Source: Desulfobacterales bacterium (GTDB lineage: Bacteria > Desulfobacterota > Desulfobacteria > Desulfobacterales > SG8-13). Taken from it: a DNA stretch of 64,000 nucleotides. Location of the stretch: contig JBAVJU010000199.1 of assembly GCA_049687935.1 (NCBI GenBank), forward strand, positions 7,727-71,726, read 5' to 3'. The notes under the pieces were generated by a model, which was given only the letters and a program-made list of their open reading frames with translations, searched no databases and was not told the DNA's origin. This document shows positions 7,430 to 63,222 of this stretch, piece by piece. The position numbers were made by a program, and so were the translations under genes. Position 1 is the stretch's first letter; the number at the start of each line of letters is the position of its first letter.

Positions 7430-7535
7430 AGGCGATGCATAAAATTGTGTCCGATGGATTGCTTGTCACAAAAAAGTGTTCCCGATCCTTTTTCGATTGA
7501 ACACCGCAACCCTGAACCCGCAACGTTTAGCGATT

Positions 7536-9080
7536 TCAATAGGATTTGGCGAACACGACCCTTTGCGGTGACGGCTTACCGCAAGCGATGCATCCACCCG
7601 GAACTTTGTCATCGTTCAGCGCGCCTGGGAGGGGGATGCAGCGGATGGTCACGCCGAGATCCTCTTTAATGGCCGTTTCGCACGCTGCGTCACCGCACCA
7701 GTGCGAGAGTGCGAACCCGCCATGAATTTCGGGTTTTTCTTTGTCTGAAGGTGTAAAATAATCATAAAAGGACTTTTTTTCATCGATCACTGTCGTATAG
7801 GTCTTTTGGAAAGCCAGCGCGCGATCGAATAAAGCGTGTTGAATGCTGTCGAGGATATCGGTGATTTCGGCGACAAACCGGTCGCGTTTGACGGAGACTT
7901 TTTCGCGGTGATCCCGATCCCGGCGACCGACGAAAACAGATTCTGCGGCGATGTCCCGGGGGCCGATTTCGACCCGCAGCGGAATGCCTTTCTTGATCCA
8001 TTCCCATCCTCTGGCACCGCCGATATCACGCGCGTCGATTTCCACCTCGATCGACCGCCGACCGTAGTGCTTCTCTCTCAGTGCCTCGGCCAGACTGTCG
8101 ACATACGGCATCACCAGGGCGCTCTCCTCTGCATTCCGTACAATGGGCAGCAAAACGACATGTGCCGGCGCGACCCGAGGCGGCAGGAGGATGCCGTTGT
8201 CGTCGCCGTGGGTCATGATCAGACCGCCGATCAGTCGTGTTGACGCACCCCAGGAAGTGGTCCAGGCGAACTGCTCCTGTTCGTTGGCATCTTGATACCG
8301 GATGCCCGAAGCCCGGGCAAAATTTTGACCGAGAAAGTGAGACGTACCGGCTTGCAAAGCGCGACGATCCTGCATCATCGCTTCGACGCACAGTGTGTCC
8401 ACCGCACCTGGAAATCTTTCCCCCGCCGTTTTACGGCCCTTGATGACCGGAATGGCAAGGTGCTTTTCGGCGAGTTCGGCGTAGACGTCAAGCATCATAA
8501 GGGTCCTTGCGAGGGCTTCTTCCTCGGTTGCGTGCGCCGTGTGCCCCTCCTGCCACAAGAATTCACTGGTTCTTAAAAATACCCTGGTCCGCATTTCCCA
8601 GCGGACGACATTGGCCCATTGATTGATGAGAATGGGGAGGTCCCGGTAGCTGTTGATCCACTTCGAAAAGGAGTCACCGATGATCGTTTCCGATGTCGGT
8701 CTCACGACAAGGGGTTCCGTAAGGGGGCCGGCCGGCACGAGGCCCCCTTCCGGCCCTTTTTCGAGACGGTGGTGTGTGACGACGGCACATTCCTTGGCGA
8801 ACCCCTCGATGTGTTCGGCTTCCTTCTCGAGAAAACTCAGCGGGATAAAAAGCGGAAAGTAGGCATTTTTCACCCCGGTGGCCTTGAACATCGCGTCCAG
8901 TTCGCTCACAATGTTTTCCCAGAGGCTGTACCCCCAAGGTTTGATTACCATGCACCCGCGTACGGGTGATTTTTCCGCAAGGTCGGAAGCTTTTACGACT
9001 TGTTGATACCACTCGGAATAATCTTCTTCCCGGGTGGGAGTGATGGCCGTTTTCGGTTGTTGCAGTTTACCCATTCTCAT
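7536..9080 (-). CDS. proS: Proline--tRNA ligase (archaeal/eukaryote-like type)
   Basis: N-terminus ITPTREEDYSEWYQQVV with class II motifs. The size is about 510 aa and there is no INS editing domain. Confidence 0.92.
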   Translation of the reverse strand: MRMGKLQQPKTAITPTREEDYSEWYQQVVKASDLAEKSPVRGCMVIKPWGYSLWENIVSELDAMFKATGVKNAYFPLFIPLSFLEKEAEHIEGFAKECAVVTHHRLEKGPEGGLVPAGPLTEPLVVRPTSETIIGDSFSKWINSYRDLPILINQWANVVRWEMRTRVFLRTSEFLWQEGHTAHATEEEALARTLMMLDVYAELAEKHLAIPVIKGRKTAGERFPGAVDTLCVEAMMQDRRALQAGTSHFLGQNFARASGIRYQDANEQEQFAWTTSWGASTRLIGGLIMTHGDDNGILLPPRVAPAHVVLLPIVRNAEESALVMPYVDSLAEALREKHYGRRSIEVEIDARDIGGARGWEWIKKGIPLRVEIGPRDIAAESVFVGRRDRDHREKVSVKRDRFVAEITDILDSIQHALFDRALAFQKTYTTVIDEKKSFYDYFTPSDKEKPEIHGGFALSHWCGDAACETAIKEDLGVTIRCIPLPGALNDDKVPGGCIACGKPSPQRVVFAKSY

Positions 9081-26304: not shown

Positions 26305-26700
26305 TTAACTTCTTTTGCCCGCTTCATCGCTAATAACCGCATCGGCCTCAATTTCGACCAGCCACTTCGGTTCGATGAAGCCTGCCACTTGCACGATGGT
26401 GCTGGCGGGCCGGATTTCCTTGAAGTACACCCCCTCGTACGGGCTGCCACTGGATACAAGTTGACGCTTCATTTTTTCGCCTATTAAAAATGGGCTGCGC
26501 CCTTCATTCAGTTCCCGCCAAAAATTCGCCGACGAACGGGTGCTGCCTTCGTCAATAAAAACCGCAATTAAATTGGCATCTATATTGCATATCTTCCAAG
26601 AATTTAAAGATATTAGGTTCCCGTTTGCGGGAGAACCGGCTTGCTTTTCAGCTTGCGAAACCGAATCCTTGATGCATCCAAAATGAAATTTAAGCATCAA
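26305..26700 (-). CDS. RidA/YjgF-like protein, possibly degenerate
   Basis: Only the C-terminal third resembles the RidA family (VYFKEIRPASTIVQVAGFIEPKWLVEIEADAV). The N-terminal part overlaps a sigma54-type promoter and the start of the next gene on the opposite strand. Confidence 0.4.
   Translation of the reverse strand: MMLKFHFGCIKDSVSQAEKQAGSPANGNLISLNSWKICNIDANLIAVFIDEGSTRSSANFWRELNEGRSPFLIGEKMKRQLVSSGSPYEGVYFKEIRPASTIVQVAGFIEPKWLVEIEADAVISDEAGKRS
26574..26589 (+). promoter_or_regulatory. Sigma54-type -24/-12 promoter (TGGCAT-N5-TTGCA)
   Basis: TGGCATCTATATTGCA has exact GG-N10-GC spacing. It lies 94 nt upstream of the ATG at 26683. Confidence 0.55.
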
Positions 26701-28089
26701 AATTACTTAATCAGCATTGTTGACGACGAAGCGCTTTACTTTGTGGAAATCAATTCGCGTGGCGAAAGTAATGCCGTTGACCGTATCGCTCTCGAAAAGT
26801 TTTTTATCAATGCCCCCCCGGCAGACATTATTCCTGCGTCCATAAGAGATCGAAAGAATACACTCCTCATTGTACCGGACTATTGGCTCGGGAATTCATC
26901 CTACAAGTTTCAATCCCGCACGAAATCACTGGCGGATGCATTTGTCGCCAGAAAGTTGCACGAGCAATTTCCCGATCAACCGGAAATCAAGTATTTTTTT
27001 GACGGCACTTTTTACCAGCGAGAACAGGCCGACAAGTGGGTATACGCTTATTTTTTGCAGGATCCTCAATTTTTTAAATTATATCCTCAACTGGCTCAAA
27101 TTAATCTGCAGCCGCATCGCATCACCTGCCCCGCTTTAATCTGGCAGCAGAAAATAAGACAGGAAATCCCTGACTTTGACAACGGCGGGAAAGGGTTTGT
27201 GCAGCTACTGCCGAAGATCGGTCTTTTGTATTTCTTCTTTGAAGGGAACTTTCTCTTTTCACGCAGAATTCCTTTAGCCGGTGCGCCGTCGCAGTCTTCC
27301 GACAATTATGATGCCATTGCTTATGAGCTCAATCAGTCGCTTTATCTCTTTTCACAAAAAGCCAAGACCGAAATAGATAAATTGTACCTTGTGTCCCATG
27401 AAGAGGAAAGCGGGCATGCATTATCCGAGGTGCTCGGCCGGGAAGTCCATGATTTGAACTATATCATCAACAATTCGAATACCCTGCAAAGTTCGACCGC
27501 AGCTGCGGGAGCAATGGGGTTTCTGAGTCCAAGCGACATCTTGCCCGGCAAAAACTTTCTGTCTCTCTGTCACCGGGTGTTGAAGAAAGAGTTGGAATGG
27601 AAGCCGGTTCAATTCGGCGGGATGGCCGTCGGACTAATCCTCTTGTTTTTGCTGGGGCTTGAAGCGACGGTGCTCCACAAATGGTCGCAGCAGATTCAAC
27701 TGCCGAGGTCAAACGACAGCTTATCGGCTGAAGAAAGTCATGAAATTCAGCAATACAATGAGGCGCTCGATGCTATCCTGAGCGAATTGGGAAGACGCTC
27801 GCCTCAGGAACTTCTGCGTAAAATAGCCAAGTCATTGCCGCCGAATGTTCGCATACAGGAAATGGTTTTGGAGACGGAAGACAACCCTGGCGTTAATCTA
27901 AAGGGTGTTATTCGGGCGGATGATCCAGAACAGTTCAAAGCATGTCTTTCTACCTTGATTGCCAATGTTAACGCAAATATTCAGGGCCGCCGGGCAATGA
28001 CGGTGTCGGATATTGATTTCGAGGTGAATCAGAACCAGCCGGGCCAAGGTGTGCAGGATTATTTTATCAATTTTCGACTGGATTTATAA
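26683..28089 (+). CDS. Pilus assembly protein, PilM-PilN fusion-like (MshI/GspL-like topology)
   Basis: A cytoplasmic region of about 320 aa is followed by one TM helix (GGMAVGLILLFLLGLEATVL) and a periplasmic domain of about 130 aa. It is the first gene of a run ending in a secretin. The assignment rests on architecture and context, not on a motif match. Confidence 0.65.
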   Translation: MKFKHQNYLISIVDDEALYFVEINSRGESNAVDRIALEKFFINAPPADIIPASIRDRKNTLLIVPDYWLGNSSYKFQSRTKSLADAFVARKLHEQFPDQPEIKYFFDGTFYQREQADKWVYAYFLQDPQFFKLYPQLAQINLQPHRITCPALIWQQKIRQEIPDFDNGGKGFVQLLPKIGLLYFFFEGNFLFSRRIPLAGAPSQSSDNYDAIAYELNQSLYLFSQKAKTEIDKLYLVSHEEESGHALSEVLGREVHDLNYIINNSNTLQSSTAAAGAMGFLSPSDILPGKNFLSLCHRVLKKELEWKPVQFGGMAVGLILLFLLGLEATVLHKWSQQIQLPRSNDSLSAEESHEIQQYNEALDAILSELGRRSPQELLRKIAKSLPPNVRIQEMVLETEDNPGVNLKGVIRADDPEQFKACLSTLIANVNANIQGRRAMTVSDIDFEVNQNQPGQGVQDYFINFRLDL

Positions 28090-28610
28090 TGCGAGGTAAG
28101 TTCAAAAATCGGTGGATCATGGTCGGTCTTGTCTGGGCCTGCGTTTTCATGATTCACTTTTGGAATATCGAAAAGATTGATCAGATCCGAGAACTTCGCG
28201 TGCAGAGGGAAATTTTTCTGAGGGATCAACAGTTCTGGAACAATAACGCCCAAAATATTTCACAAATATTGCAACAGTATTCTTCTTTTACCCAGCACGT
28301 TGAATCTTTAAAATTAGGCCTTCTCCAACTGGAAAACAATTTAAAGGCCCGTGCTCTGGGTCTGGGTCTCAAAGAAGTAAAATTTATCCGTCAAACGGAA
28401 ACAGCCGCTGAGGGAACAGTGCCGGCAAAGCTGGTTTTTATCGGCACCTTCAAGGATGCCAGCCAATGGCTGGATGGGATTCAAAAAGACCTTCCCTGCG
28501 TTTGGATCCAAAACATCAAGGTATCACTGGAGCCGCTCGCGGAGCAGGCCAAGTTCCAGGTATCCATCAATTACCGCTATACCTTATCGTTCGCTGAAAG
28601 TGCCGCTTAG
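28089..28610 (+). CDS. PilO/MshJ/GspM-like pilus assembly protein
   Basis: N-terminal TM helix (WIMVGLVWACVFMIHFW), a coiled-coil segment and a small C-terminal domain. Its start codon overlaps the upstream stop (TAATG). Confidence 0.55.
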   Translation: MRGKFKNRWIMVGLVWACVFMIHFWNIEKIDQIRELRVQREIFLRDQQFWNNNAQNISQILQQYSSFTQHVESLKLGLLQLENNLKARALGLGLKEVKFIRQTETAAEGTVPAKLVFIGTFKDASQWLDGIQKDLPCVWIQNIKVSLEPLAEQAKFQVSINYRYTLSFAESAA

Positions 28611-28615
28611 TTGAA

Positions 28616-29209
28616 ATGAATATTCGGTATCGATTATTCAATATCTCCCATTTAAAGATATCAGGCAGTCGCCCAAGATTGGTATTCGGCTGTTGGTTGC
28701 TGGCAGCCTTGCTGCTGGCGGGGCATAACGGGTCGGAGTTGGCGACCCTGTTGAGCATGCCCGTTTCGGGACAGTCGGCGCAGGTTAAGCTGGCAAGTGA
28801 AAAATGGCGGCAGCTGCAAGATAAAATGTCGCAAACCGTCAAGGAAATGGCGGACAAGGTTGATCTGGATCTGGCGTTCACACAATTTTCTGCTCATTTT
28901 GAGCACCAAAAAGCGAATGATTCAGACTCGGAGGTTGCGCAAGCGCCCAGATTAGAAGCGCAAAGCATGCAGCTCCCGAAATTGTCCGGAATCCTCCATT
29001 GTTTGGATATCAACGGCAATGTAGATGCCCTGGCGGTCATTGAAGGACGAAGATTCCAGGAAAAAGACACGGTGCGCGAATTTCAAATCCAAAAGATTGA
29101 AGAGAAGGGGGTTGTTTTGACAAAAGGTGGTAAAAGATGGTTTCTCAAGACCCCCGAAGTTTCATATTCTTACAATCACGAACCCAACGCCCAAGGTAGC
29201 GGACAGTAA
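28616..29209 (+). CDS. PilP/MshK/GspC-HR-like protein
   Basis: N-terminal hydrophobic segment. The C-terminus LPKLSGILHCLDINGNVDALAVIEGRRFQEKDTVREFQIQKIEEKGVVLTKGGKRWFL resembles the PilP/GspC secretin-contact beta domain. Confidence 0.45.
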   Translation: MNIRYRLFNISHLKISGSRPRLVFGCWLLAALLLAGHNGSELATLLSMPVSGQSAQVKLASEKWRQLQDKMSQTVKEMADKVDLDLAFTQFSAHFEHQKANDSDSEVAQAPRLEAQSMQLPKLSGILHCLDINGNVDALAVIEGRRFQEKDTVREFQIQKIEEKGVVLTKGGKRWFLKTPEVSYSYNHEPNAQGSGQ

Positions 29210-29305
29210 CCCCCTATTTTGGGGTAAAAGCTAAATTCCGGTCAAAAAGATAATACCAAAAGTCGGAAGGATTGCGCAGACAATCGTAGCGGTCGTGAGG
29301 AGCCT

Positions 29306-30814
29306 ATGCATTACCTGCTGGAAAACATAAATAGAAGATGTCTGATCACTGTCGCCGTGATTATTGGATGCCTTGTCAACGGTTGTGCGACCTATGAGCC
29401 TCAACCGGTGACCCTGAAGGAGTTAAATGAGATCCAACCGAAAGAATTGCTGCAGAAAGAAAAGTTCATTAAACCGCCGGGACCGCCACCGTTCGCTGAA
29501 AAGATGGAACCGGTTGCCAAGGATTTGGTGAAAGAGACGCGGCTTTATTCATTGCTATTTGAAAATGCGCCCTTGGGGACCATTCTGAATGCGATCGTGG
29601 CGGATACGGATTATAACCTATCGATTGAATCGGGAATCGATCTGTCCAAACCGGTAACGGTGCGCCTGAATAACGCCACGCTGCGGGAAGCATTGGATAT
29701 GATTATCGTCAAAGGGTCAGGGTATGCATGGGAAACCGTTGACGGGTCGCTGGAAGTCAAAAGATTTGAAGAAAGAATCTATGATTTGGACTACATGGAT
29801 ATAGGCGGTCAAACCGACATCGACGTCGGCGGGGACATGCTGTCGACCAGTGTGGAAGCGGCCGGCGTGGCCGGTAAATTTCAAGTCAAGGCCCAACGCA
29901 GCGCTGAGAAGACCGATGTCTGGACCGGGGTCGAAGAGTCTTTGAAAGCGCTCAAATCACCGGAAGGTATACTGCGAATCAACCGCAATGCTGGCATCAT
30001 TTACATGGCGGACACTCCCACGCGGATAAAAACCATGGTCAATTTCCTGGATTCCCTGGCCGAAGCATTGCACCGACAGGTTTTCATCGAGGCGAAAATC
30101 ATGGAGGTTAAACTCAATGACACCAATAAGTACGGCATCGATTGGACCAATCTTGAGGTCTTGTTCAAATCCCACGCGGGTTATATGCCGGATTATTTTG
30201 ATCTCTTCCTAAACGGCGGCAGCACCATTGCCCTGGCGGATCAATCCGCTTTCAGTGCGGTGATCGATTTTTTGAGAACCCAGGGTGAAGTCTCGGTATT
30301 ATCCAATCCGCATCTGACGGTCATGAACGGCCAGTCGGCCGTGTTGACGGTGGGGGAGCAGTTTCCCTTCGGCGATATCGACGGCGCGGATCAGAATCTG
30401 GAGTACGGCACGATTACCTATCGGTCCTCCATCAAGCGTGTTGTTCTGGGGCTTCAACTCGGTTTGACGCCGCAGATATCCAAGGACGGCATCGTGTCCC
30501 TGCTGATCGTACCAACCATCACCCGCATCAAAGATGAAATCAAGGTGGATATCCCTCTGACGGCGACGATCCGGCAGTCCATTACCAACCCCGTGATCGA
30601 TCTTCAGGAGTTGGCCACGACGGTCCGGGTTAGAGAAGGGCGATCAGTGGTTCTGGCCGGGCTGATCAGTCAGATAAAGAATCTCGACCAAGAAGGTCTG
30701 CCATGGTTCGACAGCTTGCCCTTCGCCAAATACTTTTTTAGCCGAATCAAAGAGTCTTATGAAAACAGTGAATTGGTGATCTTCCTCACCCCCTACATAA
30801 AAAATGTCATGTAA
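29306..30814 (+). CDS. Secretin (type II/IV secretion system family; lipoprotein, MshL-like)
   Basis: Lipobox (IIGCLVNGC). C-terminal secretin signature VLSNPHLTVMNGQSAVLTVGEQ...RSVVLAGLI...LVIFLTP. Confidence 0.85.
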   Translation: MHYLLENINRRCLITVAVIIGCLVNGCATYEPQPVTLKELNEIQPKELLQKEKFIKPPGPPPFAEKMEPVAKDLVKETRLYSLLFENAPLGTILNAIVADTDYNLSIESGIDLSKPVTVRLNNATLREALDMIIVKGSGYAWETVDGSLEVKRFEERIYDLDYMDIGGQTDIDVGGDMLSTSVEAAGVAGKFQVKAQRSAEKTDVWTGVEESLKALKSPEGILRINRNAGIIYMADTPTRIKTMVNFLDSLAEALHRQVFIEAKIMEVKLNDTNKYGIDWTNLEVLFKSHAGYMPDYFDLFLNGGSTIALADQSAFSAVIDFLRTQGEVSVLSNPHLTVMNGQSAVLTVGEQFPFGDIDGADQNLEYGTITYRSSIKRVVLGLQLGLTPQISKDGIVSLLIVPTITRIKDEIKVDIPLTATIRQSITNPVIDLQELATTVRVREGRSVVLAGLISQIKNLDQEGLPWFDSLPFAKYFFSRIKESYENSELVIFLTPYIKNVM

Positions 30815-31001
30815 TCGATGTGAAAATGCCGCCGGCAACTTCTCTCTTCACGGAATTCAAAACACATCCCCAAGGCAGCTGACAATTTGCGTCATTTTCT
30901 TGACTGCGGTATGACCGTGGCCTTTCTCTGGAACGCGTTTTTTATGATAACCTATAGAAAATAATCATATTTTAATCAATTCGGGCTGATGCGACTATCA
31001 T

Positions 31002-31017
31002 TGGCATTAAATTTGCT
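31002..31017 (+). promoter_or_regulatory. Sigma54-type -24/-12 promoter (TGGCAT-N5-TTGCT) upstream of the major pilin gene
   Basis: TGGCATTAAATTTGCT has correct GG/GC spacing and lies 58 nt upstream of the ATG at 31075. Confidence 0.6.
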
Positions 31018-31074
31018 AAAAATGTCGTAATTTTATGGGTACATTTCGTAAATATAGCTGCAAAGGATGAAAAA

Positions 31075-31659
31075 ATGCTGAAAATTAGAAATGTTAAAAA
31101 CTCCCAGGCTGGTTTCACTCTGGTGGAGATTGCCATCGTGATGGTTATTATCGGCCTCCTCATCGGTGGTATTCTCAAAGCACAGGGCATGATTCAAAAT
31201 GCAAAAGTAAAGCGCGTCGTCAAACAAGCGGATGAATTAAGAGCCGCGGTGATGGGGTTTTATGATAAATATGGGGTGTATCCCGGGGACGAGAATCAAG
31301 CCGCCGTTCCGCCGGGGGCTGACGGTGAAGGCGACGGCGATGGATTGATCGAGACGTCCAACAATGAAACCTTTGAGGTCTACAGGGATTTGGTGCGATC
31401 CGAGCTGATCGCCGGTGATTACAACGGCACCTCTGAACTTCCGAGTCATGCCTTTGGGGGCACGGTACGTCTTCAGTGGGTTGATCCGCCGGGGGCAGGG
31501 ACGTTCAATCACTATTTCATGTACACCAATATACCCGCCGAGGTGTGTCAGGAGATCGATCAGAAATTCGATAACGGTACCTGGAATACAGGCTCGATCG
31601 TCGGCAGTGTGGCTTATAACGCAGGAACAACGGTACCCATTCTCTATATTCTTTTTTAA
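31075..31659 (+). CDS. Prepilin-type N-terminal cleavage/methylation domain protein (major pilin/pseudopilin candidate)
   Basis: The leader MLKIRNVKNSQAG|FTLVEIAIVMVIIGLLIGG has G-1, F+1 and E+5. The region after the helix is GspG-like (KQADELRAAVMGFYDKYGVYPGD). There is an acidic DGEGDGDG loop and a single Cys. Confidence 0.85.
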   Translation: MLKIRNVKNSQAGFTLVEIAIVMVIIGLLIGGILKAQGMIQNAKVKRVVKQADELRAAVMGFYDKYGVYPGDENQAAVPPGADGEGDGDGLIETSNNETFEVYRDLVRSELIAGDYNGTSELPSHAFGGTVRLQWVDPPGAGTFNHYFMYTNIPAEVCQEIDQKFDNGTWNTGSIVGSVAYNAGTTVPILYILF

Positions 31660-31675
31660 CGGTGCTTTCAAATGA

Positions 31676-31703
31676 CGGCCCGCCTTTGGCGGGTCCTTCT
31701 TTT
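31676..31703 (+). terminator. Hairpin plus T-rich tract after the major pilin gene (terminator/attenuator)
   Basis: GGCCCGCC-ttt-GGCGGGTCC followed by TTCTTTT, 17 nt after the stop. Confidence 0.45.
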
Positions 31704-31723
31704 AGCACACCGACTCTTCTGAA

Positions 31724-32620
31724 TTGAACACGAGAGAAAAAATACCCCAAAGCCGGTTGAGGTCCGCCTTCGTCCTGTTCGCGCAACAGCACGGGTTTTC
31801 GTTGATCGAAATTGCCATTGTCATGGTCATTATCGGATTGCTGGCCGGCGGCGGGATATCTTTGATGGGTGCGCTCACCCAACGCAAGGCGCGCAACGAG
31901 ACCATCGATTACCTGAAACAGGCCGAAACCGCCTTGATCAGCTTCGCCGGCATAAACGGCAGGCTTCCCTGGGCCGATACCAGCGGAAACGGCAATGAAA
32001 ATAGTGGTGCGTCTTCCGGAAACTTACCCTATCAAACCCTTAAATTGATTCCCACCGATCCCAACAAACGTGTCCTTAAGTATGCGTTGAACAGCAACCT
32101 GGGCACCGATCGAACAACCAGCTGCACCGCCCTGCGCGCGGGGCTTTTGGGTGGGCCCGCCGTCGTCGATGCCGACGGCGCCGCCTCCTCTTTTCAGACG
32201 GCCGCTATTCTTATCAGCGCCGGTCCCGCAGATGCCGATGGTGACGGAAACGTCTTCGACCGCATTGGCACCGGCACCCATCAGGGTGACAACACCGACG
32301 GGTCCCCTAATTTTTTACGATACCCACCGATTGACGGCTTTGATGATCTGGTCGTCTACTTAGGCGAGCATCAATTATACGCAGAAATCTGCGAGTTTCT
32401 TTCGCTGGCGGTCAACAATAACTCCGGCGGGACCGTCTATGTCCATAATCGCACGCAGGGCAGCGATTTGGGGACTCTCGCCAACGGCGGATTCGGCACT
32501 TACACGATCCTGTCCGGTACTCAGATTGAAATCCGAAACGGTTCGGGTGGCAACGTCCCATCCACTCCGCCGACCCCGCTCGCACTCGCCGGTCGCGGCT
32601 TTACCATAACCCTTCCTTGA
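31724..32620 (+). CDS. Large prepilin-like protein (298 aa) with Gly/Asp-rich C-terminal region
   Basis: ...FAQQHG|FSLIEIAIVMVIIGLLAGG class III signal. There is no in-frame ATG upstream of the cleavage site, leaving TTG candidates at 31724 and 31757. Confidence 0.7.
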   Translation: MNTREKIPQSRLRSAFVLFAQQHGFSLIEIAIVMVIIGLLAGGGISLMGALTQRKARNETIDYLKQAETALISFAGINGRLPWADTSGNGNENSGASSGNLPYQTLKLIPTDPNKRVLKYALNSNLGTDRTTSCTALRAGLLGGPAVVDADGAASSFQTAAILISAGPADADGDGNVFDRIGTGTHQGDNTDGSPNFLRYPPIDGFDDLVVYLGEHQLYAEICEFLSLAVNNNSGGTVYVHNRTQGSDLGTLANGGFGTYTILSGTQIEIRNGSGGNVPSTPPTPLALAGRGFTITLP

Positions 32621-32629
32621 AATCCCAAT

Positions 32630-33847
32630 CTAGTACGCCTTGCCCAGCTGGCTGAAAACATCATAAAGCGGCAGAAGGATCGAAAGAATGATCAGACCGA
32701 ACACACCTCCGAGGAGGATGATGGTCAGCGGTTCAATGCTGCTGACCATGGCCTGGACCGTTCTTTTGACTTCACTGTCATAAAAATCTCCCAGACGCGT
32801 GAACGTATCATCCAGGGTACCGGTGGTTTCTCCATTTTTGATCCCGCCGACCAGGAGCAGTGGAAAACCGCCCGTTTTTTCAAAACTCTCCGCAATCGTG
32901 CGGCCGAGTTGGATATCATTATAGGCCGCTTGCAAACGGGACTCCAGGTACTTGTTGCCGAGCACGTTATCGGCCAGGATTTCAAAAATAGCGTTGATCG
33001 ACATGCCGGCGGTGTACATGGTGGCAAAATAGTGGCATAGACGAGCCAGGGCGATGTTTTGAGCGACTTGGCCTATCAGAGGCACTTGCAGTAAATATTT
33101 TTGTATGAAAATCCCGCCCTTGGGACTGCGCTGCAGCAGGAAGAAAAGTGCGGCAATCGCAGCGACGCCAGCGATTAAGGCGACCCAATAGCCTCTAATA
33201 AAATTGCTCATCGTCAAAACGGCTTGGGTGGCGCCCGGAAGGACGACCCCCATTTCTTTCAGGAGCACGGCCATTTGAGGCAGGACGTACCCGACCCAGA
33301 CGCCGATGACAACGCCGAGAGCCACGAGCACAAAGGACGGATAAATAGCCGCTCTTTTGATTGTCGAGCGGATATCTTCTTTCCATTCATGAAAATTAGC
33401 CAAGTCTTTCAAACACTTGGGCACGACACCGGTCTGCTCGCCCATATGGATGATGCCCAGATCAAGCTTGCCGAAAACCTTCGGGAAGCGGGATATGGAT
33501 TCATGCAGGGTCTTGCCGCTTTCGATGGAGAGCCGGATTTCACTGAGCGCCTTTTTAAGAGTCCTGGAGGGCAGTAGCTTGGAATTTTCCTCCAGGGCCG
33601 AGACGATGGGAAGTCCCATGTCCAGTGTCTGTGAGAGCCGCCGGTACAATTCAATCCGAAGCCGTGGTTTGACTCTAAGACCGCTGAAAATATTGCCTAA
33701 TGGGCTGTCCTTGAGCGAATTGGTTGCAATCAGCGTCAGGCCCTCCTGGGCTATCCGCAGTTCCGCATCTTTTTCACCGAGTGCGATAACTTTCCCGCGC
33801 CGAACTCTACCGGCATCATCAATGGCCTTATAACTATAGTTAGGCAT
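32630..33847 (-). CDS. Type II secretion system F family platform protein (PilC/MshG/GspF)
   Basis: 405 aa with a duplicated T2SSF domain and three TM regions. Its start overlaps the ATPase stop by 8 nt. Confidence 0.9.
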   Translation of the reverse strand: MPNYSYKAIDDAGRVRRGKVIALGEKDAELRIAQEGLTLIATNSLKDSPLGNIFSGLRVKPRLRIELYRRLSQTLDMGLPIVSALEENSKLLPSRTLKKALSEIRLSIESGKTLHESISRFPKVFGKLDLGIIHMGEQTGVVPKCLKDLANFHEWKEDIRSTIKRAAIYPSFVLVALGVVIGVWVGYVLPQMAVLLKEMGVVLPGATQAVLTMSNFIRGYWVALIAGVAAIAALFFLLQRSPKGGIFIQKYLLQVPLIGQVAQNIALARLCHYFATMYTAGMSINAIFEILADNVLGNKYLESRLQAAYNDIQLGRTIAESFEKTGGFPLLLVGGIKNGETTGTLDDTFTRLGDFYDSEVKRTVQAMVSSIEPLTIILLGGVFGLIILSILLPLYDVFSQLGKAY

Positions 33848-35489
33848 AGGCGACCACGCGCTGGATTTCCTCTACCGAGGTGATCTGCTGGGCGACTTTT
33901 TTCAGGGCCTGTTTAAACATCAGACTGGTTCCCGCTTGAACGGCAATTTCCTGTATTTTGCTGTGAAGTGCACCGGCAGAGATCAATTCTTCCATGGCAC
34001 GATCCACTTCGAGAACCTCAAAAATTCCGGTGCGGCCGTTGAACCCGGTTTGATCACAACTCGGGCACCCCACGGCATGGGGAATTTCGCCAGGCGGTTC
34101 GAGGTCATGGCGCCGAAAGAGATCTTTTTCCTTCGGCGCGGCGGTTTTCATGGTCCTGCAGTGCGGGCAGATCTTGCGCACCAGGCGTTGGGCCACCACC
34201 ATGACGAGTGAAGATGCCAGGATACTGGTATTAATACCCAGATCGAGCATGCGGTTAATGGCCGAGGCGGCATCATTGGTATGCAGGGTGGACAAAACCA
34301 GGTGGCCCGTAATGGAAGCTCTCAGGGCTAGTTCCGCGGTCTCCAGATCCCGGATTTCGCCGACGAGGATGACATCGGGGTCCTGCCGCATCGCCGATCG
34401 CAAGGCGTTGCCGAAGGTCAGGCCGGCCTTGGGATTGACGGCCGTCTGCCGGACGGTCGGGATGACATGTTCGATGGGATCTTCAATGGTCATGACGTTG
34501 ATATTGGGGTTGTTGATTTTCATCAACGCCGAGTAAAGTGTCGTGGTTTTGCCGGATCCGGTGGGACCGGTGGACAGGATCAGACCGTAGGGGCGCTTCA
34601 GGTTCTGCAGAAACCTGTCCAGGTCGTCCTTCTCAAAACCGTGCCGGGAAAGATCCCCCACGACATCGGTATACTTCAGAAGCCGCAAAACCACCGTTTC
34701 CCCTAGATGCGTCGGGAAAGTTGATGCTCTCAGATTGATTTCACCGGCGCTTCCCTGGTATTTGAAACGGCCGTCATGGGGAATGTTGGTATTGGAGATA
34801 TCGATATCCGCCATAATTTTGAAGCGGGTGGACAGGCTTTGGTGAAAGCTTTTGGGGAAAATATGTTTTTGTTGCAGCACCCCGTCGATCCGATAATAGA
34901 TTCTGACCAGATTGTTATCGGGCTCGATATGGATATCGCTGGCCCTGAGCACATTTCCCTTTTCGATCAACATGTTGGCGAGCCTGACGATCTGATCATC
35001 GGCAGCCTCTCCTGCGCCCGAAGGTGTGAGCGTCAGCTTTTCGATCTCGACGTCAATGGTGCGGGCGCGCTTGTAATGCAGTTCCACGGCATTGGCAATC
35101 CACTCCTTGGAGGCCAGATATGTTGCCACCCGGCACCCGGTCATACGGCCGAGTTCGTCCTTGGTGATCACATCAAAAGGGTTGGCGGTGGCGATCTTCA
35201 GGGTGTCATCTTCCCGGGCAAAAGGAAACACATTGTGTTTACTGACAAATTCTGCCGGAATCTTATCAACCAAGGCGTGATCGATCATAACCGAGGATGT
35301 ATCCAATATTTCGGCACCGCTTTGAACGGCGATGGCCATTTGGAGTTCGTCATCGGTTATCCAGTCGAGGCGGATCAGAACATCACCGAGCATAGCCCCG
35401 GTTTTTTTGGACTCCATCAATGCCATCTCCAACTGGCCCTGGTCGATGAAACCCATTTGAATCAATATATCGCCAATGCGTTTTTTCAT
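33840..35489 (-). CDS. GspE/PilB/MshE-family assembly ATPase with MshEN-like N-terminal domain
   Basis: Walker A GPTGSGKTTT, Asp/His boxes, and the tetracysteine motif CPHC...CPSC. The N-terminus is RIGDILIQMGFIDQGQLEMAL / MLGDVLIRLDWITDDELQMAIAVQ. Confidence 0.92.
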   Translation of the reverse strand: MKKRIGDILIQMGFIDQGQLEMALMESKKTGAMLGDVLIRLDWITDDELQMAIAVQSGAEILDTSSVMIDHALVDKIPAEFVSKHNVFPFAREDDTLKIATANPFDVITKDELGRMTGCRVATYLASKEWIANAVELHYKRARTIDVEIEKLTLTPSGAGEAADDQIVRLANMLIEKGNVLRASDIHIEPDNNLVRIYYRIDGVLQQKHIFPKSFHQSLSTRFKIMADIDISNTNIPHDGRFKYQGSAGEINLRASTFPTHLGETVVLRLLKYTDVVGDLSRHGFEKDDLDRFLQNLKRPYGLILSTGPTGSGKTTTLYSALMKINNPNINVMTIEDPIEHVIPTVRQTAVNPKAGLTFGNALRSAMRQDPDVILVGEIRDLETAELALRASITGHLVLSTLHTNDAASAINRMLDLGINTSILASSLVMVVAQRLVRKICPHCRTMKTAAPKEKDLFRRHDLEPPGEIPHAVGCPSCDQTGFNGRTGIFEVLEVDRAMEELISAGALHSKIQEIAVQAGTSLMFKQALKKVAQQITSVEEIQRVVAYA

Positions 35490-36328
35490 TCTATCGACCT
35501 TTTACTCTCACTTGCGCTGTTGCCCTCTGTCTGATTCCGGTTTGCGCCTAAATAAGCGTGCAGGGACCTGATTCGCGTTTCAATGTTTTTTTTATCATGC
35601 GGTGGCAACGTGTTATTTTGCTGCAAAAATTTACCGTAATAGTGAATGGCATCATCATATCGTTGTAATTTGTCGGAAAGAACCGCCAGGTTGAAGATCA
35701 GATTATTATGACTGGTATTGAGTTTCTCTGCTTTTTTATAGCAAATTCGAGCTTCTTCCAACTTGCCGAGCCGACTCAGGGCAGCGGCACGATGAAAATA
35801 AATTCCAAAGCGTGGTTCCTCGCATTGATTGGCAGCCGAATCCAATAAGTGAATCGCTTCTGCGGGTCTCCCCAAACCGATTTCAGTGATTGCGAGGTTT
35901 ACCAAAATATCGGGGTTTCGGTGATCGCTCGTCTCCAGCCGCTTTAGGAGGGGATAAGCATCCGAATAGGCTGCCAATTGGATATAGGCTGAACTGAGAT
36001 TGAACAGGGCGTCACGATGATCGGGGTTTACTCTGATGACTTGTTTATACATTTGAATGGCTTGATCTAACTTGTCCCCGCGGTGGTAGCGCAGCGCCTT
36101 TTGATAAAAAATATCTTCTTCATGAGATGGTAAGGGCTTGGCTGTTTCATTTCGCGCAATTGCTTGCACGGCTCTGTTGGCAGCATTCGGGATGTTTTCT
36201 TGGGCGGACAGAGACCCCGAGAAACACCACGCACCAAGGATAAATGTGCCTGATAGGACCAACCTTTCACCGATGCACGCCATTTTTTTTCGGATCGCTT
36301 CATTCAACAAGCTCATATTTATTTCCAA
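35486..36328 (-). CDS. TPR repeat protein (MshN/PilF-like)
   Basis: N-terminal hydrophobic segment followed by at least five TPR-like repeats. Its stop overlaps the ATPase start (ATGA). Confidence 0.7.
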   Translation of the reverse strand: MEINMSLLNEAIRKKMACIGERLVLSGTFILGAWCFSGSLSAQENIPNAANRAVQAIARNETAKPLPSHEEDIFYQKALRYHRGDKLDQAIQMYKQVIRVNPDHRDALFNLSSAYIQLAAYSDAYPLLKRLETSDHRNPDILVNLAITEIGLGRPAEAIHLLDSAANQCEEPRFGIYFHRAAALSRLGKLEEARICYKKAEKLNTSHNNLIFNLAVLSDKLQRYDDAIHYYGKFLQQNNTLPPHDKKNIETRIRSLHAYLGANRNQTEGNSASESKRSIE

Positions 36329-36372
36329 TGCAATTTAAGGGCTCACTCAAAAATATCATCACATTTTCAATT

Positions 36373-36999
36373 TCAATCATATGGGGGAACCCACCACGCC
36401 GTTTCCGCAAACTCAATTCTGACCTCTAATTGTTTTTCCTTGTTTCGAACATCCTTTATCTTTCCCAGGACCTCCTGCCGATCGACAATCCCCGGAAAGT
36501 TGAAGCTCATGGTAATGAGATCATCGCATCGCAACGTATGATCCGTTTTTGCAGCCGCTTCAAAGACGCAGCAGCAGCCGCGTTTACTGATATTTTTGAT
36601 GACCCCGGCTTTCGTTTCGTTATTAATGTCGATTTTAGCGGAAATAAAGCAGCTGATTCTTTTATGGGATCGGGATTCTTGCTTCATCACCGATGCGGGG
36701 TATTCCAATAAGAGCAATTTTAGGGGGCTATTCGTTATTTCCATTAACTTGGACGTGAATTTTAAGATATTCCCTTTAAACGAAAATTTAATTTTAATCC
36801 GGTCGCTCTGAAGCAGCTTCTTTTCAATGCTATTAAAATTTGAAGGAGGGGTAATGACGATATATTGACTCCCCTTTTTACCGACAAAGGTGCTCTTCAG
36901 CGCATCGTCAAGACCATCGACGGCAAGGCTCAATTCGGTTCCAGTTTCGAGATCGAGGTTATTTTTTTTATCGATCCCTTCTAAGGTATTAATTGACAT
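36373..36999 (-). CDS. PilZ domain protein with YcgR-like N-terminal (PilZN) region
   Basis: RSHKR (RxxxR) at residues 110-114 and NISKRG (D/NxSxxG) at residues 136-141. It is the first gene of the ATPase operon. Confidence 0.75.
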   Translation of the reverse strand: MSINTLEGIDKKNNLDLETGTELSLAVDGLDDALKSTFVGKKGSQYIVITPPSNFNSIEKKLLQSDRIKIKFSFKGNILKFTSKLMEITNSPLKLLLLEYPASVMKQESRSHKRISCFISAKIDINNETKAGVIKNISKRGCCCVFEAAAKTDHTLRCDDLITMSFNFPGIVDRQEVLGKIKDVRNKEKQLEVRIEFAETAWWVPPYD

Positions 37000-58798: not shown

Positions 58799-59362
58799 AA
58801 AATGATGAACCAGGCGTATCAGGGCCGGCATGTCGATCGGCTCCGCGCCGCGATACCCTTTTAAAAGTCTAGCGCCTTTGAGGCTTTCCACCATTGAAGA
58901 GACATCGCTGTCCAAAAGCGGGGCCATTCTCAAGGCGGTGTCCTGATAGATTTCCACTCCGGTGCCGCCGATACCCAGCAATATGATCGGGCCGAACTGG
59001 TAGTCGATTTTCGCACCGATGATCAGCTCGACCCCCGATACCAACGGCTCGATGAGGACTCCGGCAAATCCCTCCAACCGGCTGAAACCCCTGAAGACAT
59101 CGGTCAATGCATCTGCATCTTCGAGGCCGACGGCCACGCCCTTGACCTCGGATTTGTGCACGATGGCCGGAGAGACGATCTTGGCCACCACCGGGTAGCC
59201 GATATCCTCAGCGGCGGCAAGGGCCTCGGGCAGAGTCGTTACCCAGCGAAAATCGGGCACGGGAATCCCGGCCAAAGAGAGCATCTGCTTGGCTTCCGGT
59301 TCCAATACCCAGCCGTATTTCTCGGCACGGCGAATGATGTCCTTCATGTTCTTATTCAGCAT
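58661..59362 (-). CDS. ADP-forming acetyl-CoA synthetase beta-like subunit (ATP-grasp domain)
   Basis: 233 aa from the ATG at 59362 (MLNKNMKDIIRRAEKYGW...). ATP-grasp-like VVAKIVSPAIVHKSEVKGV. The start overlaps the upstream stop by 7 nt. Confidence 0.8.
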   Translation of the reverse strand: MLNKNMKDIIRRAEKYGWVLEPEAKQMLSLAGIPVPDFRWVTTLPEALAAAEDIGYPVVAKIVSPAIVHKSEVKGVAVGLEDADALTDVFRGFSRLEGFAGVLIEPLVSGVELIIGAKIDYQFGPIILLGIGGTGVEIYQDTALRMAPLLDSDVSSMVESLKGARLLKGYRGAEPIDMPALIRLVHHFSVLVMDIADRIDTIDLNPVKCTGTACVVVDARIMLANAAIPIELI

Positions 59363-60723
59363 GTCCGGCACCTCCGCAGGGCCTCGACCATCAGCACCGC
59401 CCCATCGATGGAAGACGAGACCGGGACGTTGTTCAGTTCGAAACCCTCGATCAACATCCGGTATTTTTCCTGGTGGGGCACGTAAGCCACCAGCGGTTTG
59501 TTCTCGCGCCGGAACACGTGGCTCAACCGGGCCCCGAGGTCGGAACTGATCCCGGGTGAGTACGGCAGCAAAAGCAAGATCACGCAATCGACCTCCGAAG
59601 CCTGGCTCAGTCCGTTGGCGGCCGCCACAAAATCGTCATCCCGGGCACTGCCGGTCAAATCGACGGGGTTTTCGAGGGAGGCGATCCCCTGAACGCTCGC
59701 GGACAGGTTCTCCTGTATCTTTTGTCGGGTATCTTGGGACAGCTGAGGGACGGCCAAGCCCCTGGCGGCGCAGATATCGGTAACGAGGACGCCGTGCCCG
59801 CCGCTGACGGTGATGATGCCCACCCGACCCTGGACCTTCTGGCGGTAACAGCTGAGGGACTCGCAGAAAGACACCATCTCGAACTCGTTGTCGGCTTCCA
59901 CGATACCGTGCTGGGCCAATACGGAGGAGAAGACTTTGTGGTCGCCAGCCAGAGAGGCGGTGTGACTGGAGGCCGCCCGCCGGCCCTCGGTGCTTTTGCC
60001 GGACTTGAGCACGATGATCGGCTTGGGGACGCTTGCGGCAGCTTGGACGAAACGGCGGCCCTCATTTTTGTCAAAACCCTCCACGTAGAAGGCAATCACG
60101 CGAGTCGCGGGATCTTCGGACAGGTAATCCAGCATGTCCAGCTCACGGATAAGGGCCTTGTTGCCGATGCTCACCGCGAGAGACAGCCCGACCCCTTGCT
60201 CGGCGAACTTGACCATCTGATCCACCAGCACGCCGCCGCTTTGGCTGATGATGGCGACCTGTCCGGGATCGGGACGCACCAGGCGCTCTCCGGGCAGGAA
60301 GAAAGTGTCGAAGCGGGTCGGTGCGTAGATCCCCAAGCAGTTGGGCCCGATGAAGGGAAAGCCGGCTGCCCGTGCTAAAGCGACCAGCCGCTCCTGCAGA
60401 TCTGCGCGCCCGCTTTCGGCAAATCCGCCTGAAATGATCACGGCCCCGCCGACACCGTTTTTGATACAGCGCTCGAGAATATCCGGGACGAATTCGGCGC
60501 GGGCAGCGACCACCGCCAGATCGATACGGGCCGGGACGTCGGCGATGTCGGCGTAGACCCGGTCCCTCTGGAACTGTCCGCCGCGGGGATTGACCGGGTA
60601 GACTTTTACGGGGTACCGCAGGTGAATTTTATTGTAGATGACATTGGCCGGGTGGCGGTCATTGGTCAGCGACACGCCCAGAACGGCGATGGTTTTGGGA
60701 TGAAAGAGCGGGGTGAAATCCAA
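59356..60723 (-). CDS. ADP-forming acetyl-CoA synthetase alpha-like subunit (CoA-binding plus CoA-ligase domains)
   Basis: IAVLGVS...YPVNP CoA-binding start. GPNCLGI. Phosphohistidine-loop-like SHTASLAG. Confidence 0.85.
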   Translation of the reverse strand: MDFTPLFHPKTIAVLGVSLTNDRHPANVIYNKIHLRYPVKVYPVNPRGGQFQRDRVYADIADVPARIDLAVVAARAEFVPDILERCIKNGVGGAVIISGGFAESGRADLQERLVALARAAGFPFIGPNCLGIYAPTRFDTFFLPGERLVRPDPGQVAIISQSGGVLVDQMVKFAEQGVGLSLAVSIGNKALIRELDMLDYLSEDPATRVIAFYVEGFDKNEGRRFVQAAASVPKPIIVLKSGKSTEGRRAASSHTASLAGDHKVFSSVLAQHGIVEADNEFEMVSFCESLSCYRQKVQGRVGIITVSGGHGVLVTDICAARGLAVPQLSQDTRQKIQENLSASVQGIASLENPVDLTGSARDDDFVAAANGLSQASEVDCVILLLLPYSPGISSDLGARLSHVFRRENKPLVAYVPHQEKYRMLIEGFELNNVPVSSSIDGAVLMVEALRRCRTC

Positions 60724-60746
60724 ATCAGCCTCCGGTCGACTTCCAG

Positions 60747-61313
60747 TCAGATTTTTTTACCGATTTCAAACGCTCGGCCCAGGTAGTGACCGATTCCGTG
60801 GTAAGAGCGGATCTCCGGGCCGAAAATAATCGGCGCCACTTTTTCGATATCCGGCAGGCCGTTGTCGTCGACAACCGCATCTTCGGCTTTGACATCCATG
60901 ATTTCGCCGATAAATTGGGTGTGGAGACCGATTTCCACTGTCCGAATGAGTTTGCATTCAAGGATCAGCGGAAATTCGGCGATGTAAGGCGCGTCAACAA
61001 GATCGCTCCTCACGGCGGTCAGACCCGTAGCGGCAAATTTGTCGGTCGTTCGACCGCTGACCATCCCGAAGTAATCGGCCTCACGGACAAATTTCTCCGA
61101 AGGGATGTTCAGCGTGTAGGCCTGCCGCTCGACGATGTTGGCGTAACTGTAACGCGGCTTCTGGAGCGCCACGTAAACACATGGAGGCTTGGAGCAGCAG
61201 ATGCCGCCCCACGCGGCCGTCATGCCGTTGGGCCGTCCGTCTTTGTCATAGGTTCCCACGATCCATACCGGTGTGGGAAACACCAGGGTCTTGGCACCCA
61301 GGGATTTTTTCAT
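60747..61313 (-). CDS. Flavin reductase family protein (flavoredoxin-like)
   Basis: PTPVWIVGTYDKDGRPNGMTAAWGG matches the flavin reductase-like FMN-binding fold. Confidence 0.85.
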   Translation of the reverse strand: MKKSLGAKTLVFPTPVWIVGTYDKDGRPNGMTAAWGGICCSKPPCVYVALQKPRYSYANIVERQAYTLNIPSEKFVREADYFGMVSGRTTDKFAATGLTAVRSDLVDAPYIAEFPLILECKLIRTVEIGLHTQFIGEIMDVKAEDAVVDDNGLPDIEKVAPIIFGPEIRSYHGIGHYLGRAFEIGKKI

Positions 61314-61535: not shown

Positions 61536-61976
61536 TCAGGAGTCAGTCTCGCCTGTGGTTTCATCGATCCATCGATACCCTTGATAGGCGGTCATGAAAC
61601 CGTGAATGCCGTTTTTTTCAAACCATGTTGGGTCCCAGGCTTGGTCTTCCACAAGGTCGATAAATTTATCATTGAAAACGTAAACCCAGGCCGAAATCCG
61701 GCTGCCGTTCGGGAGTGAGCAGACCGCTTTCTTTTTGGTGTAATAAGCCCCCTCAAAGCGGTCCAACCGCACAGCGTCGCGTTGCCCGACGTCCAGGTAG
61801 ACCACGCCGTCGACCTGATCGTCCGCAGTGCCCGGGACAAGGGCCGGGTAGGCTTCCCCCCTGATCTGTCGGCGCTGATAGCCGAAAAGCCGTGCGTTTG
61901 TTTTCCGGTAAGTGCCGGCTACCACGACGGTCCACACCCGGTCGAACATGAGGGAACCGTAGGTGAAAATGTTCAT
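61536..61976 (-). CDS. Gamma-glutamylcyclotransferase (AIG2/GGACT-like) family protein
   Basis: MNIFTYGSLM...YPALV...GVVY motifs. The ATG at 61976 overlaps the upstream stop (ATGA). Confidence 0.75.
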   Translation of the reverse strand: MNIFTYGSLMFDRVWTVVVAGTYRKTNARLFGYQRRQIRGEAYPALVPGTADDQVDGVVYLDVGQRDAVRLDRFEGAYYTKKKAVCSLPNGSRISAWVYVFNDKFIDLVEDQAWDPTWFEKNGIHGFMTAYQGYRWIDETTGETDS

Positions 61977-62914: not shown

Positions 62915-63222
62915 CGATCAAAGGGATCAGTTGGTATTTTTTCCGGTCCGGCCAACAGGCCCTGCGTGTCAGCCATTGCAAATATACCCAGAATAGCATA
63001 TTTGACAACAGAAACGGTGAGCGGATCCGCTTTCGGCGATGATACGGAAAAATAAAAAAACTGACCGGTGTCACTAAGTACTCTTTAATGTCATTGCGAT
63101 CTTATTGTAAAATCCCTCCCGACCTTCCTTATTTCCCCGCCTGCGCAAAGAGGAAAGACGGATTTTTAAAGGGAATTTGTCGAGTTATATTAAAATAATA
63201 AAAAAAGAGGAACACTTATTCC

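Follow-up and report, generated by a model that had tools for sequence, protein, structure and literature searches.

Two kinds of receptor for the second messenger cyclic di-guanosine monophosphate (c-di-GMP) bear on the locus described here, and both are built from standard domains. The pilus ATPases MshE of Vibrio cholerae and PilF of Thermus thermophilus have a receptor module within the ATPase itself, and proteins such as YcgR of Escherichia coli and MotI of Bacillus subtilis are two-domain, ligand-binding PilZ proteins which act on flagella. The genes of the V. cholerae mannose-sensitive haemagglutinin (MSHA) pilus are arranged in the order mshIJKL and msh(M)NEG, and this msh locus is not known to contain a PilZ gene. 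In the literature searched, no report was found of a YcgR-like effector paired with a type IV pilus ATPase, and neither a combination of both receptor types in one system nor a PilZ subfamily ending in WWxPPY is described there. Here, we present the analysis of a pilus locus in which both receptor types are predicted. It lies on a 64-kb stretch of DNA, in the following called the window (contig JBAVJU010000199.1, positions 7,727 to 71,726), from an uncultured Desulfobacterales bacterium.

The locus is probably a cluster of type IV pilus genes of the MSHA-like kind. Its genes for a PilZ protein, a tetratricopeptide repeat (TPR) protein, the pilus ATPase and the platform protein read as one operon on the minus strand, with the PilZ gene first. 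We favour, with a probability of about 0.55, the reading that this pilus motor is addressed by c-di-GMP at two points, namely through a variant MshEN module of the ATPase and through a dedicated PilZ protein. The original prediction, which was made from the DNA sequence and its open reading frames (ORFs), had drawn attention to the span 35319-36999 on the minus strand. This span comprises the PilZ ORF of 208 amino acids (aa), the TPR ORF and the first 57 codons of the ATPase gene; both features named in the prediction, the PilZ protein and the ATPase N-terminus, are present, whereas the TPR gene at 35486-36328, which separates them, had gone unmentioned. The features of the operon are the following:

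36373-36999, minus strand: PilZNR-PilZ protein, 208 aa, first gene of the motor operon (ORF and Pfam)
36697-36945, minus strand: predicted PilZNR (YcgR_2-type) N-terminal domain, residues 19-101 (PF12945)
36658-36672, minus strand: RxxxR motif RSHKR, residues 110-114 (read from the sequence)
36577-36594, minus strand: [D/N]hSxxG motif NISKRG, residues 136-141 (read from the sequence; conservation in homologs)
36376-36399, minus strand: AWWVPPYD tail, residues 201-208, replacing the canonical PilZ C-terminal helix (alignment)
35486-36328, minus strand: TPR protein, 280 aa, in the MshN position (several TPR families of Pfam match)
33840-35489, minus strand: PilB/MshE-type pilus ATPase, 549 aa (PF00437 T2SSE, 2.6e-119, and PF05157 MshEN, 3.7e-17)
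35409-35480, minus strand: MshEN motif I of the ATPase, RIGDILIQMGFIDQGQLEMALMES, residues 4-27 (aligns with MshE R9-Q32; relaxed Wang pattern matched)
35322-35393, minus strand: MshEN motif II of the ATPase, a conserved variant, MLGDVLIRLDWITDDELQMAIAVQ, residues 33-56 (aligns with MshE R38-Q61)
35061-35318, minus strand: MshEN_C (alpha/beta) subdomain of the ATPase, residues 58-143 (PF05157)
32630-33847, minus strand: platform protein, 405 aa, T2SSF, in the PilC/MshG position (PF00482, 1.9e-44)

The position of the PilZ gene at the head of the ATPase operon, as originally proposed, agrees with the signals found around it. An AAGGA ribosome-binding site lies 7 nt ahead of its ATG, a terminator-like hairpin is located upstream of the gene at 37094-37082, and no terminator-like site was found on the minus strand inside the scanned operon. 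According to the ORF coordinates, the TPR and ATPase genes overlap by 4 nt and the ATPase and platform genes by 8 nt. A promoter scan gave no minus-strand match upstream of the PilZ gene.

At the N-terminus of the ATPase, the original prediction had described two tandem motifs of the MshEN type, the second with Asp in place of the conserved Gly. Both peptides were located, each 24 residues long and separated by a spacer of exactly five residues (KKTGA), and the Gly-to-Asp exchange was confirmed as Asp42. It is not the sole departure, however, since motif I ends in Ser27 instead of Gln and motif II starts with Met33 instead of Arg, both of which had been missed. The alignment with V. cholerae MshE which had been proposed as a check is gap-free and in register, pairing the first 113 residues of the ATPase with residues 6-118 of MshE in PDB entry 5HTL (E 6.8e-16), and most of the positions compared are kept. 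In the order MshE to ATPase, these are R9 to R4, G11 to G6, G18 to G13, L25 to L20 and L29 to L24 in motif I, and L39 to L34, G40 to G35, L54 to L49 and Q61 to Q56 in motif II. Conservative replacements are found at L10 (I5), L58 (I53) and D108 (N103), and changes at Q32 (S27), R38 (M33) and G47 (D42).

Different profile and structure comparisons point to the same module. The NCBIfam model NF053729 for an MshE-related c-di-GMP-binding domain matches residues 4-56 over its full length (profile positions 1-53 of 53) with 57.7 bits against a cutoff of 38. The MshEN family of Pfam covers residues 58-143 only, and its match is therefore uninformative with respect to the motifs. Motif I matches the relaxed pattern used in the searches by Wang et al. 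2016 (PMC5013675), and motif II fails it. An AlphaFold model of residues 1-160, with a predicted local distance difference test score (pLDDT) of 85, shows helices at residues 5-11, 17-30, 34-40 and 46-56, with D42 in the turn between helices 3 and 4. In a Foldseek search with the model of the N-domain, MshE with bound c-di-GMP (5HTL) was the best match, followed by PilF GSPII-A, the N-domain of Xanthomonas citri PilB and PilF GSPII-B. A related ATPase of 815 aa, encoded at 5929-8376 in the related locus L029, has its N-terminal region of about 270 residues (MshEN and part of N2D) duplicated.

The departures from the motif consensus are, as judged by their distribution among homologs, a conserved variant and not decay. 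Homologs were taken from a search with the full-length ATPase (the N-terminus alone gave 13 fragments only), and the 120 best-scoring ones, mostly from uncultured Thermodesulfobacteriota, share 63-99% identity with the ATPase of the window. In this set, Met occupies position 33 in the great majority of proteins and Leu in six of them; Asp is found at position 42 except for two homologs with Gly, W43 and Q56 do not vary, and at position 27 there is almost always a Ser, Thr or Ala. Because M/L33, D/G42, W43 and Q56 are held throughout, the variant site is under purifying selection. Decay of the ATPase N-terminus was rejected on the grounds that residues 1-57 form the most conserved segment of the enzyme: among ten full-length orthologs, 72% of their columns are invariant, compared with 40% in MshEN_C and 56-59% in the N2 and catalytic domains.

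Several findings on PilF bear on the changed positions. In its GSPII-B domain, Leu196 occupies the position of Met33 and stacks on the guanine, the dissociation constant is 6 nM, and the L196R variant binds c-di-GMP 4-fold worse (PMC11731258). In the same study, the consensus was extended to (R/K/L)LG and a hydrophobic first residue was proposed to predict very high affinity (PMC11731258). Methionine is chemically close to the validated Leu196. The notion that Met33 marks a dead site was dropped, given the tight binding through Leu in GSPII-B and the alternation of Met and Leu among the homologs. With regard to the end of motif I, a variant with the exchange Q190E at the corresponding Gln position still crystallised with c-di-GMP (PDB 9GL5). 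In the GSPII-A domain of PilF, an extended and capped helix 1 blocks the site (PMC12002112). Such a blocking extension is impossible in the ATPase of the window, because only Met-Lys-Lys precedes Arg4.

The second candidate receptor is predicted to be a YcgR-like two-domain PilZNR-PilZ protein that binds c-di-GMP. The Pfam family PilZ (PF07238) matches residues 109-198 with 30.9 bits against a cutoff of 22.5 (3.5e-7), and PilZNR (PF12945) matches residues 19-101 with 40 bits against a cutoff of 23 (4.4e-10; profile positions 2-85 of 85). A YcgR-like N-terminal domain had thus been recognised correctly, but its assignment to the YcgR-type PilZN family (PF07317) was wrong; because PF12945 scores above its gathering threshold, the domain is assigned to the PlzD/MotI type. 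The binding motifs RSHKR and NISKRG are intact at the predicted offset of 22 residues and conserved in an alignment of 26 homologs with 50-96% identity. R110 and R114 do not vary in this alignment, nearly all homologs have Asp or Asn at position 136 (one has Ser), and conservation reaches at least 90% at I137, S138 and G141. NISKRG also fits the refined definition [D/N]hSxxG, in which h is Ile (bioRxiv 10.1101/814665).

The AlphaFold model of the PilZ protein (pLDDT 78) consists of two beta-barrels, and the linker with the RxxxR motif has low pLDDT in this unliganded model. Its best Foldseek matches in the PDB are PlzD (2RDE), MotI (5VX6) and YcgR (5Y6F), and PP4397, MrkH and PlzA are also matched. 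Exact copies and relatives of the protein occur in metagenome contigs and in metagenome-assembled genomes of Desulfobacterales; source annotations name the protein ‘flagellar brake protein YcgR’. Directly after NISKRG, the sequence GCCCVFE contains three Cys in a row (residues 142-144; 36568-36576, minus strand); relatives have C-R-C or C-C-C at these residues, and C142 is nearly invariant.

Gene linkage suggests a relation of this PilZ protein to the pilus. Among homologs with at least 50% identity, every locus with enough flanking sequence has the PilZ gene upstream of the TPR-ATPase-platform operon. The linkage is held down to 38% identity (loci L017, L027 and L028) and in three gene arrangements: the PilZ gene heads a (MshM)-TPR-ATPase-platform operon in the window, in L006-L016 and in L028; it heads an operon of MshIJK, secretin and pilin genes in L027; and it lies beyond such a MshIJK-secretin-pilin operon in L017. 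In L023 and L024, only the 3′ end of the PilZ gene is present at the edge, upstream of the (MshM)-TPR-ATPase-platform genes. The genes upstream of PilZ are unrelated between the loci.

The pilus-linked proteins share a C-terminal tail as well, which is a marker of the subfamily at the level of sequence. The tail is invariant or nearly so in the alignment of 26 homologs, and all pilus-linked proteins of which the C-terminus was read, including those of L017, L027 and L028, end in [A/L]WW[V/I/P]PPY plus one residue. In contrast, the paralogs of L018-L021 from Desulfosudis and Desulfocicer (33-36% identity), all four read to the C-terminus, are tail-less and end in a helix-like sequence; the two whose surroundings were mapped, L018 and L020, sit in unrelated, non-pilus contexts. 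In line with this difference, the match to the PilZ model of Pfam stops at profile position 86 of 102 in the protein of the window and reaches 101 of 102 in those of L018 and L020, and in the AlphaFold model of the window protein no helix was found after the strand at residues 190-197. A search of 1.84 billion cluster representatives matched 1696 proteins at E ≤0.001; the tail is present in 15 of the 150 best cluster representatives, and all 15 are among the top scorers. One of the tail-less paralogs, from Desulfosudis oleivorans (L020, 9191-12822), is a fusion of the type REC-DUF4388-PilZNR-PilZ and adjoins a gene for a CHASE2-nucleotidyl cyclase.

By analogy with Xanthomonas, the tail may be a docking peptide. 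The PilZ protein of X. citri binds the N-domain of PilB via its C-terminal residues 107-117, and the complex is abolished when these residues or the terminal Met alone are removed (PMC8389850). As another candidate partner, the neighbouring TPR protein was considered and set aside because its N-terminus, read from the sequence as hydrophobic, signal-peptide-like and ending in SLSA/QE, suggests that it is probably periplasmic.

No diguanylate cyclase or phosphodiesterase was found in the 64-kb window, as had been stated before: a scan for the GG[DE]EF motif in ORFs of at least 100 aa had no match, and the Pfam scans of window ORFs detected no GGDEF, EAL or HD-GYP domain. Matches of an EAL-like regular expression at 59359-60756 and 61976-62917 belong to a CoA ligase and a homocysteine methyltransferase and were discarded as phosphodiesterase candidates. 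Likewise, Pfam detected neither flagellar nor chemotaxis genes in the window. The scans covered 59 selected non-overlapping ORFs of at least 90 aa, minus a few short ones. The only enzyme for a nucleotide second messenger found in the window is a full-length RelA/SpoT (p)ppGpp synthetase/hydrolase (5285-7429, minus strand). In L007, an HDOD-GGDEF gene (230-1711) is divergent from the adjoining PilZ gene and encodes the sole diguanylate cyclase beside any of the loci examined. L029 has no PilZ gene; a class III nucleotidyl cyclase (Guanylate_cyc) is encoded there on the other strand, about 3.9 kb upstream, and its gene diverges from an MshM-like gene, the first of the operon.

The remaining pilus genes form a set on the plus strand, which converges tail to tail with the motor operon:

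26641-32620, plus strand: convergent pilus gene set (secretin and N_methyl matches in Pfam)
26641-29209, plus strand: three ORFs of 482, 173 and 197 aa in the MshI/J/K positions (no family match above threshold)
29306-30814, plus strand: MshL-like secretin (Pfam; best NCBIfam secretin family MshL)
31075-31659 and 31724-32620, plus strand: two prepilin-type proteins (N_methyl, Pfam)

The order of the TPR, ATPase and platform genes fits an MSHA-type pilus locus. The TPR gene is found upstream of the ATPase gene in all relatives, and the plus-strand set is syntenic in most relatives with enough flanking sequence and was not found in L026. Neither the window nor its closest relatives have an MshM-like AAA_22/SPOR gene, which lies between the PilZ and TPR genes in more distant relatives. 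Assignments to single families are less sharp. For the ATPase, which contains the Walker A sequence GPTGSGKTT and a CPHC...CPSC tetracysteine motif, the NCBIfam models PilB and GspE give 507 and 486 bits, both under their equivalog cutoffs; MshL, with 198 bits under a cutoff of 250, is still the best secretin family. The ORFs in the MshI/J/K positions have no Pfam or NCBIfam match above threshold (the 197-aa ORF has sub-cutoff matches to T2SSB and CdsD_C only), and are nonetheless conserved upstream of the secretin gene in most relatives. The TPR protein of the window is shorter than those of L006-L008 and L028 (280 versus 366-380 aa). Housekeeping genes flank the cluster, with GltX and DUF192 on one side and YceD, GlnRS, NifU and NifS on the other.

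From the domains, their conservation, the linkage and the operon structure, we infer ligand binding by both proteins and a partner of the PilZ protein within the pilus machine, with activation or braking as the possible outcome. The ligand would be made elsewhere in the genome. As the first receptor, the four-helix module of the ATPase would bind one c-di-GMP and license or stabilise the active motor, in analogy to MshE and PilF GSPII-B. The second receptor, the c-di-GMP-loaded PilZ protein, probably docks on a cytoplasmic part of the pilus machine, and its likeliest target would be the ATPase's N-terminal domain, reached via the WWxPPY tail. An extension of this scheme, in which the PilZNR-PilZ protein is a YcgR-like clutch or licensing factor whose tail engages the MshEN domain, itself a c-di-GMP receptor, and in which the different affinities of the two receptors produce a dual-threshold or band-pass response, seems unlikely.

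A number of points weigh against a motor with two c-di-GMP inputs. Neither the strict consensus nor the relaxed pattern is matched by motif II, which departs from them at positions 1 (Met) and 10 (Asp); the Gly of the turn between helices 3 and 4 has been described as required (PMC5013675), Met is absent from the validated position-1 residues R, K and L (PMC11731258), and engineered PilF GSPII-A constructs lose binding when Ser takes the place of the motif II Arg (PMC12002112). Because Ser at this position abolishes binding and Leu gives 6 nM, sequence does not decide the matter for the ATPase; in our view, it is somewhat more probable than not that its N-domain binds c-di-GMP. On the side of the PilZ protein, the members of the PilZNR-PilZ type that have been characterised work on flagellar motors or motility and not on pili, and docking by the tail would be a pure analogy with PilZ and PilB of Xanthomonas. 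Four additional look-ups were anchored on the ATPase and hence unbiased towards PilZ; a PilZ gene was present within 10 kb in only two of these loci and in neither L026 nor L029, so that PilZ is a frequent accessory and not an obligatory component. The Met/Asp variant of the ATPase occurs without a PilZ gene nearby as well, and a coupling of the variant to the presence of PilZ was discarded, since the ATPases of L026 and L029 (P0168 and P0060) carry it.

The main rival explanation is a single input via the PilZ protein, with an ATPase four-helix bundle that no longer binds c-di-GMP and is conserved as a docking surface for PilZ or the platform protein. It would resemble Xanthomonas PilB, the ND0 of which lost the motifs and where the signal arrives via PilZ and FimX, and X. 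citri PilB-N, a known PilZ binder (PMC8389850), is indeed among the best fold matches. The high conservation of residues 1-57 would be equally compatible with a protein interface and with a ligand site. The three changed consensus positions (Q32 to S, R38 to M and G47 to D) and the failure of motif II in the relaxed pattern speak for this explanation, and so do experiments on engineered PilF GSPII-A constructs, where binding was lost once the motif II Arg was turned back into the native Ser and where even a fully restored consensus gave no binding in the intact domain (PMC12002112). On the other hand, the backbone-contact and hydrophobic-cluster positions I5, G6, L20, L24, L34, G35, L49, I53 and Q56 are all kept in the ATPase, whereas the non-binding XpsE has eight disruptive changes (PMC5013675); the NCBIfam model of the c-di-GMP motif is passed by about 20 bits; and a hydrophobic first residue of motif II has been reported as a predictor of very high affinity (PMC11731258). 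Loci that have no PilZ gene nearby moreover keep the same variant. Altogether, a single input via the PilZ protein appears unlikely.

The opposite simplification, a single input via the ATPase with the PilZNR-PilZ protein as a general or flagellar c-di-GMP effector that happens to lie beside pilus genes, is improbable. The name given in the source annotations, the flagellar motility of its closest solved relatives PlzD, MotI and YcgR as site of action, and the lack of a PilZ gene in two of the four ATPase-anchored loci are consistent with it, but the linkage down to 38% identity in three arrangements with unrelated flanks, the WWxPPY tail which marks the pilus-linked subfamily and is missing from the paralogs read elsewhere, and the window in which no flagellar or chemotaxis gene was found argue for a dedicated pilus protein. 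Finally, the cluster could encode a type II secretion-like system or a non-adhesive fibre, in which case c-di-GMP would control secretion, as has reportedly been proposed for the MshE homolog PA14_29490 of Pseudomonas aeruginosa. The ATPase and platform proteins score on GspE and GspF nearly as well as on PilB and PilC, the pilin-like proteins weakly match GspG and GspH, and a PilT retraction ATPase and a prepilin peptidase are missing from the window. This identity is very doubtful all the same, as MshL is the best secretin family, the gene order matches mshIJKL and msh(M)NEG, and there are two pilin-like genes only, with no GspC, GspL, GspM or set of minor pseudopilins.

If both modules bind, a single operon would encode two types of receptor through which one second messenger acts on one pilus motor. 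The MshEN variant with Met or Leu at position 1 of motif II, an Asp-Trp turn and a motif I that ends in Ser or Thr would then extend the consensus used for the prediction of c-di-GMP receptors from environmental sequences. By the WWxPPY tail, members of the pilus-linked PilZ subfamily can be recognised easily, and interaction studies gain a concrete handle that can be mutated.

In comparison with known systems, the locus resembles that of V. cholerae MSHA, with which it shares a TPR gene upstream and a platform gene downstream of the ATPase gene as well as an MshL-like secretin. Its ATPase resembles MshE (5HTL) as a pilus ATPase with an N-terminal four-helix bundle and two 24-residue motifs with a 5-residue spacer. 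It differs by Ser for Gln32, Met for Arg38, Asp for Gly47 and Asn for Asp108, and by having three residues before motif I where MshE has eight. With GSPII-B of T. thermophilus PilF (8PDK), it has in common a hydrophobic residue at position 1 of motif II, and some of its homologs have Leu at exactly this position. In contrast to the ATPase of the window, however, the two terminal Gln and the two turn Gly residues are retained in GSPII-B, whose motif I starts with Lys, and PilF carries three tandem GSPII domains instead of one.

The PilZ protein is similar to MotI (DgrA/YpfA) of B. subtilis, PlzD (VCA0042) of V. cholerae and YcgR of E. coli in its two barrels and in the placement of the motifs at the linker and the start of the second barrel. 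The N-domains of PlzD and MotI belong to PF12945. Although MotI, PlzD and YcgR are the best matches of the window protein by both sequence and fold, the identity to them amounts to only 15-18%. Whereas MotI and YcgR act on the flagellar motor, the PilZ subfamily of the window is encoded with pilus genes and has the WWxPPY tail in place of the C-terminal helix. The pairing of a PilZ-superfamily protein with a pilus extension ATPase would be shared with the PilB-PilZ-FimX system of Xanthomonas and Pseudomonas (7LKO). Neither FimX nor any other GGDEF-EAL protein was found in the window, which does not encode a complex of the Xanthomonas type. In Xanthomonas, PilZ consists of one divergent domain that has no c-di-GMP motifs, and sensing there is left to the EAL domain of FimX, whereas the PilZ protein of the window has two domains with intact motifs; and where the PilB of Xanthomonas lacks the MshEN motifs, the ATPase of the window keeps MshEN-like ones.

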